Shown piece after piece: positions 15,124 to 16,472 of a DNA stretch of 39,465 bases. How positions within the stretch are numbered: the stretch's first letter is position 1; every line of letters starts with the position of its first letter. Position numbers and translations under genes: made by a program. The notes beneath the pieces were generated by a model, which was not told the DNA's origin, made no database searches, and saw only the letters and a program-made list of their open reading frames with translations. Where the stretch lies: the IMG/VR virus record IMGVR_UViG_2526164598_000015. The stretch is one strand, 5' to 3'. Origin of the DNA: a virus. Its lineage: Duplodnaviria > Heunggongvirae > Uroviricota > Caudoviricetes.

Positions 15124-16173
15124 ATGATTAATACTGTAAAAATATCCAGTTGTGAGTTAATCAACGCTGATTGCCTGGAGTTTATCCAGACCTTACCGGA
15201 AAACTCTGTCGATCTGATAGTCACAGACCCGCCATACTTTAAAGTGAAGCCCGAGGGCTGGGATAACCAGTGGGAGGGCGACGATGATTACCTGAAATGG
15301 CTGGACCAGTGTCTGGCGCAGTTCTGGCGGGTACTGAAGCCTGCCGGAAGTCTTTACCTGTTCTGTGGTCATCGCCTGGCATCTGACACCGAAATCATGA
15401 TGCGTGAGCGCTTTAATGTGCTGAACCACATTATCTGGGCGAAGCCGTCCGGACGCTGGAACGGGTGCAATAAGGAAAGTCTGCGGGCGTATTTTCCGGC
15501 AACAGAGCGCATTCTGTTTGCAGAACATTATCAGGGACCGTATCGCCCGAAAGATGATGGCTATGTGGAGCAGGGGCGCGAGCTAAAACAGCACGTCATG
15601 GCCCCGCTGATTTCTTACTTTCGTGATGCGCGTAAATCACTGGGAATAACGTCAAAACAGATAGCGGAAGCCACCGGAAAGAAAAACATGGCTTCGCACT
15701 GGTTTGGTGCCAGTCAGTGGCAGTTACCGAACGAGGGTGATTACAATAAATTGCAGGCGTTGTTTGCGCGTGTTGCGGCAGAAAAACATCAGCGCGGGGA
15801 ACTGGAAAAGCCACACCACCAGCTGGTCAGCACATACAGTGAGCTGAACCGGCAGTATACGGAACTGCTGAGTGAATATAAAAATTTGCGGCGGTATTTC
15901 GGTGTGACGGCGCAGGTTCCGTACACCGATGTCTGGACGCATAAACCGGTGCAGTACTATCCAGGGAAACATCCGTGCGAAAAACCGGCAGAAATGCTGC
16001 AGCAGATAATCAACGCGAGCAGTCGTCCGGGAGACCTGGTTGCAGATTTTTTTATGGGTTCAGGTTCAATGGTAAAAGCGGCGATGGCACTGGGGCGTTG
16101 TGCGATTGGTGTTGAGCTGGAGACCGGACGTTTTGAACAGACAGTCAGGGAAGTTCAGGATTTAATCGTTTGA
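15124..16173 (+). CDS. Orphan DNA methyltransferase, N6-adenine/N4-cytosine type (DPPY motif)
   Basis: 349 aa; motif IV DPPY (LIVTDPPYF) near N-terminus and AdoMet-binding motif FFMGSGS near C-terminus; no restriction endonuclease partner nearby. Confidence 0.8.
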   Translation: MINTVKISSCELINADCLEFIQTLPENSVDLIVTDPPYFKVKPEGWDNQWEGDDDYLKWLDQCLAQFWRVLKPAGSLYLFCGHRLASDTEIMMRERFNVLNHIIWAKPSGRWNGCNKESLRAYFPATERILFAEHYQGPYRPKDDGYVEQGRELKQHVMAPLISYFRDARKSLGITSKQIAEATGKKNMASHWFGASQWQLPNEGDYNKLQALFARVAAEKHQRGELEKPHHQLVSTYSELNRQYTELLSEYKNLRRYFGVTAQVPYTDVWTHKPVQYYPGKHPCEKPAEMLQQIINASSRPGDLVADFFMGSGSMVKAAMALGRCAIGVELETGRFEQTVREVQDLIV

Positions 16174-16222
16174 AACGGATGAGATTGCAGAATTAATTAC
16201 GCACCATTATTATTCTGCTCCC

Positions 16223-16298
16223 GGCCCTTTAGCTCAGTGGTGAGAGCGAGCGACTCATAATCGCCAGGTCGCTGGTTCAAATCCAGCAAGGGCCACCA
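16223..16298 (+). tRNA. tRNA with anticodon CAT; resembles tRNA-Ile2 (lysidine type, ileX/ileZ-like) more than initiator/elongator Met
   Basis: 76 nt; acceptor stem GGCCCTT/AAGGGCC, D-arm GCTC..GAGC, anticodon loop CTCATAA, T-loop GGTTCAAATCC, 3' CCA encoded. Confidence 0.85.
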
Positions 16299-16305
16299 TC
16301 ACATA

Positions 16306-16382
16306 CCGCCATTAGCTCATCAGGATAGAGCGCCAGCCTTCGAAGCTGGTTGCGCGGGGTTCGAGTCCTCGATGGCGGTCCA
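16306..16382 (+). tRNA. tRNA-Arg (anticodon TCG)
   Basis: 77 nt; acceptor stem CCGCCAT/ATGGCGG, anticodon stem CCAGC/GCTGG with loop CTTCGAA, T-loop TTCGAGT, 3' CCA encoded. Confidence 0.8.
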
Positions 16383-16395
16383 TTATCTGTACCCT

Positions 16396-16472
16396 GCGTT
16401 GTTAGCTCAGCCGGACAGAGCAATTGCCTTCTAAGCAATCGGTCACTGGTTCGAATCCAGTACAACGCGCCA
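16396..16472 (+). tRNA. tRNA-Arg (anticodon TCT, decodes AGA/AGG)
   Basis: 77 nt; acceptor stem GCGTTGT/ACAACGC, anticodon stem ATTGC/GCAAT with loop CTTCTAA, T-loop TTCGAAT, 3' CCA encoded. Confidence 0.85.

Follow-up and report, generated by a model that had tools for sequence, protein, structure and literature searches.

An M.EcoGII-type orphan adenine methyltransferase gene and three tRNA genes in the late regulatory region of a Qin-type Escherichia coli prophage

Genes at the locus

The stretch analyzed here, called the window throughout, is the complete 39,465-nucleotide caudoviricete record IMGVR_UViG_2526164598_000015, whose gene content and Pfam and Rfam matches identify it as a lambdoid prophage of the Qin type from E. 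coli. Its late regulatory region, between the gene for a Q-like antiterminator and the lysis cassette, contains the gene for an orphan adenine methyltransferase of the M.EcoGII family and three tRNA genes orthologous to ileZ, argN and argO (Table 1). We consider it likely that this region is the start of the late operon and carries an M.EcoGII-type late anti-restriction methylase and a set of rare-codon tRNAs as two separable accessory modules. The initial annotation, made from the sequence alone, had described a DPPY-motif methyltransferase with no adjacent restriction gene, followed by three tRNAs, one of them with an Ile2-like body, at the position where Shiga toxin (Stx) phages carry ileZ-argN-argO. 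All of these points are borne out by the results below.

The methyltransferase open reading frame (ORF) encodes 349 amino acids from an ATG start, with no frameshift or stop, and matches the Pfam family N6_N4_Mtase over residues 29-340 (E 5.8e-43). DPPY is found at residues 35-38 and FMGSGS at residues 310-315. This is the motif order of the beta class, in which the catalytic DPPY is N-terminal, the target-recognition region central, and the S-adenosylmethionine (AdoMet)-binding FxGxG C-terminal (PMC5778455). Aligned end to end with M.EcoGII, which has the same length, the protein is identical at 316 and similar at 329 of 350 positions, a value of ~90% identity that is only approximate because the reference copy (GenBank EGT69837.1, from Supplementary Table S1 of PMC11551740) was machine-read with apparent reading errors. 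A cleaner M.EcoGII sequence was sought in the homolog set, where no cluster representative was above 92.6%. M.EcoGII comes from E. coli O104:H4 C227-11 and resembles the window enzyme in length, motif order and its status as a prophage-borne orphan; M.EcoGI is its paralog (333/349 identical). The window enzyme differs from M.EcoGII by ~32 substitutions, many of them in residues 140-250, and by a private T316M change beside motif I. Relative to its homologs in Stx phages the gene is under purifying selection (dN/dS 0.10-0.12). The family spans the Enterobacterales, with 2961 database proteins at E <= 1e-10, and the exact window protein is RefSeq WP_000611211.1 of E. coli DEC13C, found on one contig only.

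No restriction partner is encoded among the flanking genes, which are the antiterminator gene, a 65-amino-acid winged-helix ORF, the tRNA genes, a TerB remnant, a DUF3927 ORF and the holin genes. There is thus no adjacent endonuclease gene that would make this a Type II restriction-modification system. PADLOC, run on the window, matched only the methylase itself, and on these two grounds the enzyme is classed as an orphan. The search for a solved structure of M.EcoGII or a close relative returned none, and the best PDB matches were distant beta-class enzymes (E ~1e-23). An AlphaFold2 model of the window protein was of low confidence (mean pLDDT 59.8, pTM 0.48), too low to be relied on; the helices that it placed at residues 147-173, 177-184, 190-194 and 204-223 would fit the published model for the family, which has a central four-helix-bundle recognition domain (~160-237) and a long linker to a Rossmann-fold domain (PMC11551740).

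Downstream, ARAGORN found exactly three tRNAs in the window, in agreement with the three genes first annotated, and each scored well above the Rfam tRNA gathering score of 29. The tRNA with anticodon CAT is identical to K-12 ileX at 70 of 76 positions (92%). It shares with ileX the anticodon arm and the pairs C4-G69 and C5-G68, unlike metT and metU, which have U4-A69 and A5-U68; base pairs 4:69 and 5:68 are identity elements for E. coli TilS (PMC11947777). It differs from ileX by a compensated change of C6-G67 to U6-A67 and by A27/C43 where ileX has G27-U43. Identical copies were present in 2730 E. coli records, all annotated as tRNA-Ile. From these features, C34 is expected to be modified to lysidine by the host TilS, so that the tRNA would read AUA.

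The two remaining tRNAs are predicted to carry arginine. The E. coli ArgRS recognizes A20 and C35 together with a purine as the discriminator base (position 73). C35 is present in the TCT tRNA, which matches K-12 argU in its anticodon loop, A20 and G73, with the rest of its body diverged from argU. The minimum-energy fold of the TCG tRNA is a clean cloverleaf; A20, C35 and G36 are present, and its C1-G72 pair and U73 discriminator are unusual. A counterpart of this tRNA was not found in the K-12 region fetched, whose four tRNA-Arg genes for the codon box have ACG anticodons. The names ileZ, argN and argO rest on GenBank and RefSeq annotation, and the trio has long been annotated in records of Stx phages. 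Both ileZ and argO are identical to the copies in phage Stx2a_WGPS2, and argN differs by a few substitutions; argO is identical in the window, WGPS2, 1720a-02, H10407 and AST205. The array was found at >= 80% query coverage in 2578 of 5426 complete E. coli genomes.

Table 1. Features of the late regulatory region, in window coordinates.
Feature	Position	Strand	Basis and remarks
Q-like late antiterminator gene	13990-14544	+	Pfam DUF1133 2.1e-102, Phage_antitermQ 1.9e-06
Candidate late promoter PR'	14541-14569	+	TTGATT 14541-14546, 17-bp spacer, TTCAAT 14564-14569; hand-read, weak
Candidate short terminated late-promoter transcript, ~75 nt	14578-14652	+	ends at candidate tR'
Intrinsic terminator, candidate tR'	14630-14652	+	AACCCGC..GCGGGTT hairpin and T7 run; -17.2 kcal/mol, z -6.1
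Small winged-helix ORF, 65 aa	14776-14973	+	RefSeq CDS WP_000917767.1
Hairpin and T-run at stop codon of small ORF, weak terminator/attenuator	14960-14985	+	scan; -9.4 kcal/mol, z -1.5
Conserved 137-nt leader, candidate structured cis-regulatory RNA	14989-15126	+	alignment, covariance model
Orphan beta-class N6-adenine DNA methyltransferase gene, M.EcoGII family	15124-16173	+	Pfam N6_N4_Mtase, identity to M.EcoGII
tRNA-Ile2, anticodon CAT, ileZ ortholog	16223-16298	+	ARAGORN; Rfam tRNA 72.5 bits
tRNA-Arg, anticodon TCG, argN ortholog	16306-16382	+	ARAGORN; Rfam tRNA 56.0 bits
tRNA-Arg, anticodon TCT, argO ortholog	16396-16472	+	ARAGORN; Rfam tRNA 70.1 bits
Terminator-like hairpin ending tRNA array	16486-16510	+	scan; -14.6 kcal/mol, z -5.0
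stx2AB-equivalent cargo slot	16516-16868	+	5'-truncated TerB-family gene 16516-16719; DUF3927 ORF 16716-16868 (1.1e-14)
Lysis cassette	16906-17994		downstream bound of the region

Two RNA genes identified with Rfam mark the prophage as Qin-like, namely DicF (4415-4466, minus strand, 74 bits) and the sok antitoxin RNA of the sok/hokD locus (11806-11980, plus strand, 108 bits). These are followed by DUF968, RusA, the DUF1133/Phage_antitermQ gene, the methylase/tRNA region, two holin genes and an M15 endolysin gene. Large ORFs continue past the lysis genes to the end of the window and are taken to be morphogenesis genes, counterparts of the terminase genes annotated downstream in H10407. The closest matches among complete genomes were E. 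coli strains of the enterotoxigenic (ETEC) type, such as H10407 (98.7% identity), in which the ortholog of the Q-like gene is named "DUF1133 family protein" in RefSeq.

Probable late transcription and the conserved leader

The arrangement upstream of the methylase gene fits the model of late antitermination in which transcription from the constitutive promoter PR' is terminated at tR' until Q acts (PMC7547250). The candidate tR' lies ~85 bp past the antiterminator gene. Its structure is kept in Stx phages, Klebsiella, Salmonella and Pantoea with other letters in the stem, and homology with the Stx phages starts exactly at this hairpin. The candidate PR' matches 7 of 12 hexamer positions, which is below the threshold of the promoter scan, and its -10 hexamer aligns with the TGATAAT of the Salmonella locus. 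The transcription start that it implies (~14577) coincides with the start of an IsrK-like match that spans the full length of the Rfam isrK model at 21.6 bits (E 0.067). A weak promoter candidate and a strong terminator after the antiterminator gene are features that the window has in common with the loci of lambda 6S RNA, StxS and Gifsy-1 IsrK. A difference is that the isrK match in the window is well under the gathering score of 50 bits. By analogy with StxS and lambda 6S, positions 14541-14652 may yield a short RNA made constitutively from the late promoter.

Two more hairpins follow on the same strand. The stem letters of the first, at the stop codon of the small ORF, covary between loci. 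The second, which ends the tRNA array, was kept in six of six aligned loci and is the last element in common with the Stx phages, where stx2A follows. A scan of the plus strand from 13900 to 17100 for sigma-70 promoters gave no passing candidate. One weak pair of hexamers (TTGCAG-17-TATTAT, 16185-16213, plus strand) ends 9 nt before ileZ; the hexamers are unchanged in Stx phages and the spacer is variable, a pattern that was not statistically significant.

The methylase is likely silent in the lysogen, since it lies behind the Q-like gene and at least two intrinsic terminators and has no recognizable promoter or Shine-Dalgarno sequence of its own. In published work, M.EcoGI and M.EcoGII were silent in the native lysogen and their constitutive expression was deleterious to the cell (PMC5778455). 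Because the cell is harmed when such enzymes are made constitutively, it is important that the gene be shut off tightly. This layout, taken with the published finding that the family is silent in lysogens, makes late, lytic expression most likely for both the methylase and the tRNAs; the methylase gene would be transcribed only once Q permits RNA polymerase to read through after induction.

The 137 nt that end at the methylase start codon are far better conserved than the adjoining coding sequence, with ~60 invariant columns and 1-nt indels across 36 distinct sequences from many genera. The covariance model R1, built from this alignment, found a single copy of the leader in each of 56 Enterobacterales loci (E <= 4.5e-12), in every case with its end at ATG+2; among them are those of Yersinia, Ewingella and Lonsdalea and loci without the 65-amino-acid ORF; a comparable GC-rich hairpin precedes the leader even in the latter. 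The fold proposed for it consists of a long-range helix that encloses two hairpins, followed by two further hairpins; its stems include a hairpin that pairs 15002-15013 with 15021-15032 and a helix that pairs 15036-15039 with 15057-15060. In the alignment fitted to the model, 94.7% of cells pair (28-50% when the partners are slid) and double changes occur in 17 of 36 pairs (5-8 in the slid controls), values reached by none of 500 shuffles. A plain MAFFT alignment gave a weaker result, with double changes in 5 pairs (1-4 in the slid controls) and in 24 cells (2-5 in those controls). The covariation in the MAFFT alignment comes mostly from one pair (C-G 16, U-A 8, A-U 6, U-G 4), which was found independently by RNAalifold.

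The leader is thus a credible candidate for a cis-regulatory element. Our tentative proposal, which we hold with somewhat less than even confidence, is that M.EcoGII-type genes carry an undescribed structured leader RNA of ~137 nt that would act in cis to hold the toxic enzyme off until late lytic growth. Two other identities were rejected. A small protein is contradicted by the 1-nt indels between lineages, which break every reading frame, and a known riboswitch or small RNA by the results of cmscan, which for positions 14540-16560 (Rfam 15, E <= 10) gave no match within the leader. The Rfam scan of the whole window at the gathering threshold also returned nothing within it, and phage records, among them those of SfV, mEp460, cdtI and phiP27, have no annotated feature at this position.

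The ORF upstream of the leader encodes a predicted winged-helix protein. Its Pfam matches are weak and are all to winged-helix families (TrmB at 0.002, MarR_2, DprA_WH and HTH_Crp_2). Its identity to the counterparts in Klebsiella, Salmonella, Pantoea and Stx phages is 79-98%, and at 79-86% across genera it is better conserved than the methylase. We surveyed homologs of the methylase (64-91% identity) in 80 species-representative genomes, which gave 78 informative loci. The ORF lies upstream of the methylase gene in 57 of these, and a profile HMM search of the other 21 for divergent winged-helix ORFs found none. The protein may regulate the methylase, and either it or the methylase itself may act together with the leader.

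An alternative to a structured RNA, which we consider doubtful, is that the leader acts as DNA, for example as an operator or promoter bound by the winged-helix protein. The ~60 invariant columns go far beyond what the structure needs, and one helix is a near-perfect 16-bp palindrome (GCTTTAGCGCTAAAGC) typical of the sites of dimeric repressors. The presence of the winged-helix ORF just upstream in most loci is consistent with such a site, as is the dependence of the covariation on mostly one pair when the alignment is not fitted to the structure. However, the leader is equally conserved in the 21 loci without the winged-helix ORF, and neither the scan nor reading by hand found promoter-like hexamers in it. 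In addition, many of the pairs are G-U, in a strand-specific manner (at one position, 46 of 54), and compensatory changes occur in helices with long loops. The frequency of G-U pairs favors action as RNA, while the palindrome and the extreme conservation leave room for a role in binding DNA or protein. If the RNA proposal is true, a regulatory leader would account for the control that phages exert over a host-toxic enzyme and would offer users of M.EcoGII a natural control element. The methylase and the tRNA trio themselves are known late-gene biology of E. coli prophages, and only the leader and the winged-helix partner are possibly new. Biochemical characterization of the M.EcoGII family dates from 2018, and it is available commercially as a reagent; the exact window protein was already in RefSeq.

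Proposed anti-restriction methylation and rare-codon decoding

M.EcoGII methylates adenine in any sequence context, on double-stranded DNA, single-stranded DNA and RNA (Murray et al., PMC5778455), and enzymes of its type form a very large family in E. coli prophages (PMC5778455). The enzyme of phage 1720a-02, which carries the same module as the window, was described by these authors as "very similar" to M.EcoGII (PMC5778455). Homologs from Shiga toxin-producing E. coli (STEC) O111 with 92-93% amino acid similarity are listed as "nonspecific" (PMC6602927), and reconstructed ancestors of the M.EcoGII clade stay largely non-sequence-specific (PMC11551740). If the window enzyme behaves in the same way, it would partially methylate replicating phage DNA before packaging, and the progeny would escape many Type I, II and III restriction systems that are blocked by N6-methyladenine (m6A).

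Several points weigh against this reading. The candidate late promoter is weak, and non-specificity is inferred for the window enzyme by homology at an identity that is itself approximate. Many of its substitutions relative to the Stx-phage homologs fall in the linker and the target-recognition region; compared with the cluster representative P0018, 11 are in residues 160-237 and 6 in residues 135-159. Two changes are private to the window. Codon 316 (window 16069-16071), right after the FMGSGS motif that binds AdoMet, encodes Met, and a conserved GATC 5 nt before the start codon reads GGTC (15119-15122). Judged by its position, T316M may reduce the activity of this allele.

These private changes raise the possibility that the prophage is in decay and that its methylase allele is attenuated or dead, crippled by T316M near the AdoMet-binding loop, which we regard as quite unlikely. 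Position 316 is Thr in 124 of 129 family members, Ile in 3 and Ala in 1. Met316 is the sole residue of the protein found in no other member, and within its own 90% cluster, the other 12 members with a readable motif all have Thr. The loss of the GATC, the truncation of the adjacent TerB gene and the occurrence of the exact protein on a single contig point in the same direction. However, the ORF is free of frameshifts and stops, both DPPY and FMGSGS are intact, and the window retains a full set of integrase, lysis and morphogenesis ORFs. Position 316 also tolerates non-polar residues, since Ile and Ala occur there in otherwise intact relatives.

The tRNAs had been expected from the start to decode codons that are rare in the host, and a codon comparison of the kind suggested then agrees with this. 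AUA, CGA and AGA/AGG are enriched in the prophage relative to a K-12 control (Table 2), with Fisher p values of 1e-6 to 1e-11 for ATA, CGA, AGA and AGG and an enrichment of 2.5-6-fold for the cognate codons of the three tRNAs. Processed from the same late transcript as the methylase, the tRNAs would make more decoding capacity available for these codons, with tRNA-Ile2 reading AUA, tRNA-Arg(UCG) reading CGA and probably CGG, and tRNA-Arg(UCU) reading AGA and AGG. CGG is the most enriched rare Arg codon in the late genes, and no tRNA with a CCG anticodon is carried; the TCG tRNA might read it by wobble, besides CGA.

Table 2. Rare codons per 1000 codons in the prophage, its late genes (small ORF and methylase through tail genes, 14776-39056) and the K-12 control.
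Codon	Prophage	Late genes	K-12 control
ATA	8.5	5.7	2.4
CGA	6.8	5.8	2.6
AGA	5.3	3.4	1.2
AGG	4.2	3.7	0.7
CGG	11.9	13.6	3.5

Rare-codon supplementation is therefore supported, short of proof, and there are points against it. The prophage set (10,772 codons) consists of ORFs chosen by hand, and the control (14,790 codons from 42 annotated genes) comes from one 50-kb region of K-12. Enrichment is highest in the early genes and in an AT-rich island (10115-11524), is weaker, yet significant, in the late genes overall, and is near control values in the lysis genes, so that the pattern is an imperfect fit to a supply of tRNAs made late. In a published comparison of lambdoid phages, those that carry these tRNAs and those that lack them did not differ in codon adaptation (PMC4631060). 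Furthermore, argN is dispensable, since it has decayed in ETEC H10407 (L003 5207-5283; two acceptor-stem mismatches, no cloverleaf, below the Rfam threshold) and in phiP27 (L001 5657-5757), while ileZ and argO are nearly invariant in both loci.

A different role for tRNAs is known from lytic coliphages, in which they counter anticodon nucleases, and colicin D targets tRNA-Arg. It is very unlikely, in our view, that the tRNAs of the window serve mainly as replacements or decoys against such nucleases of the host or of competitors. The published lack of a link between these tRNAs and codon adaptation (PMC4631060) is compatible with this role, and the bodies of argN and argO are strongly unlike the host tRNA-Arg genes. 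However, in their anticodon loops the CAT and TCT tRNAs do not differ from host ileX and argU and thus have no changes that would give escape from a nuclease, and the codons read by all three tRNAs, rare in the host, are enriched in the prophage.

For the methylase, the initial annotation had offered "anti-restriction or epigenetic" as its function. Anti-restriction during lytic growth is the better supported half, and an epigenetic role in the lysogen is unlikely for a family that has no motif and stays unexpressed there. A sequence-specific orphan, active in the lysogen and marking the DNA of host or prophage as Dam or CcrM do, is scarcely plausible: the absence of a nuclease partner, the distant resemblance, in NCBIfam and PDB searches, to CcrM and to further site-specific enzymes of the beta class and the concentration of substitutions in the linker and target-recognition region are outweighed by 90% identity to an any-context adenine methylase (PMC5778455), by close homologs listed as nonspecific with no attributable motif in lysogen methylomes (PMC6602927), by the toxicity of the family under constitutive expression and by the position of the gene behind terminators with no detectable promoter. 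In strain 95JB1, for example, GATC and CTGCAG were the only methylated motifs detected (PMC6602927). The initial annotation also proposed to determine the methylation motif by SMRT or nanopore sequencing of a lysogen and to take the lack of an attributable motif as refutation. This would mislead, as the result would be negative even for a fully active enzyme; a search by SMRT sequencing of a lysogen would be uninformative, as these enzymes recognize no motif and their genes are silent at that stage (PMC5778455; PMC6602927). Surveys of lysogen methylomes will systematically miss M.EcoGII-type enzymes, and a failure to find a motif must not be taken to mean that the gene is inactive.

Relatives, modularity and the stx slot

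The Stx2 phages phiP27 (L23/L24), Stx2a_WGPS2 and 1720a-02 have the same order and spacing of terminator, small ORF, methylase gene, tRNA genes and terminator as the window, at 88-91% nucleotide identity, and their ileZ-argN-argO trio likewise lies between antiterminator and lysis genes. The two differ in that the antiterminator of the window (DUF1133) is of another type than those of the Stx phages, with unrelated sequence up to the first terminator, and in that the Stx-phage methylases have 352 amino acids and a C-terminal tail unlike that of the window enzyme.

In other genera the same surroundings recur without the trio. The order of antiterminator, methylase and lysis genes was found in four of five loci examined (Klebsiella, Salmonella and Pantoea), although the antiterminator family varies; in the fifth, from Erwinia, a reverse-strand AAA_13 gene precedes the methylase instead of an antiterminator. 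The idea that the tRNAs belong to a conserved cassette was rejected, as 77 of the 78 informative loci have no tRNA within 1.5 kb downstream of the methylase, the exception being E. albertii. The trio is thus an addition of the Escherichia lineage to an older methylase cassette, since tRNAs follow the methylase only in Escherichia and other genera carry unrelated ones. On this comparison of sequences, the methylase and the tRNA array are two separable modules. In Pantoea (L014 4537-4612), a tRNA-Thr(TGT) gene overlaps the 3' end of the methylase gene, and in Salmonella (L013 5890-6045), tRNA-Asn and tRNA-Thr genes lie farther downstream of it. This suggests that the site close to the methylase repeatedly acquires tRNA genes.

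Homology with the Stx phages stops ~50 nt past argO, and there are no stx genes in the window. A TerB remnant and DUF3927 follow the tRNAs in place of stx, which makes the window an stx-negative relative of the Stx-converting phages. The TerB-family gene is intact in AST205 (L004 3412-3974), where it encodes 141 amino acids. In the window and in H10407, 354 bp have been deleted between two copies of ATATCCGCGCC (window 16511-21), which removed the start of the gene, and the H10407 ortholog is a partial pseudogene in RefSeq. An stx-negative prophage with other cargo in the slot shares the regulatory "landing pad" that precedes stx2, which helps to reconstruct how stx was acquired. Copies of the STnc100 small RNA were found downstream of stx2 in Stx2a_WGPS2 (L002 7157-7372) and downstream of the tRNAs in the E. 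albertii locus (L017 4026-4219 and 4495-4683); in the window there is only an 18-bit trace of it (16411-16516).

The AT-rich island mentioned above is on the minus strand, has 36% GC and encodes a 304-amino-acid DUF6731 protein and a 159-amino-acid ORF without a family match. PADLOC found no defense system in it. Its use of the codons ATA, AGA and CTA is very high, and it is probably a cargo module expressed in the lysogen.

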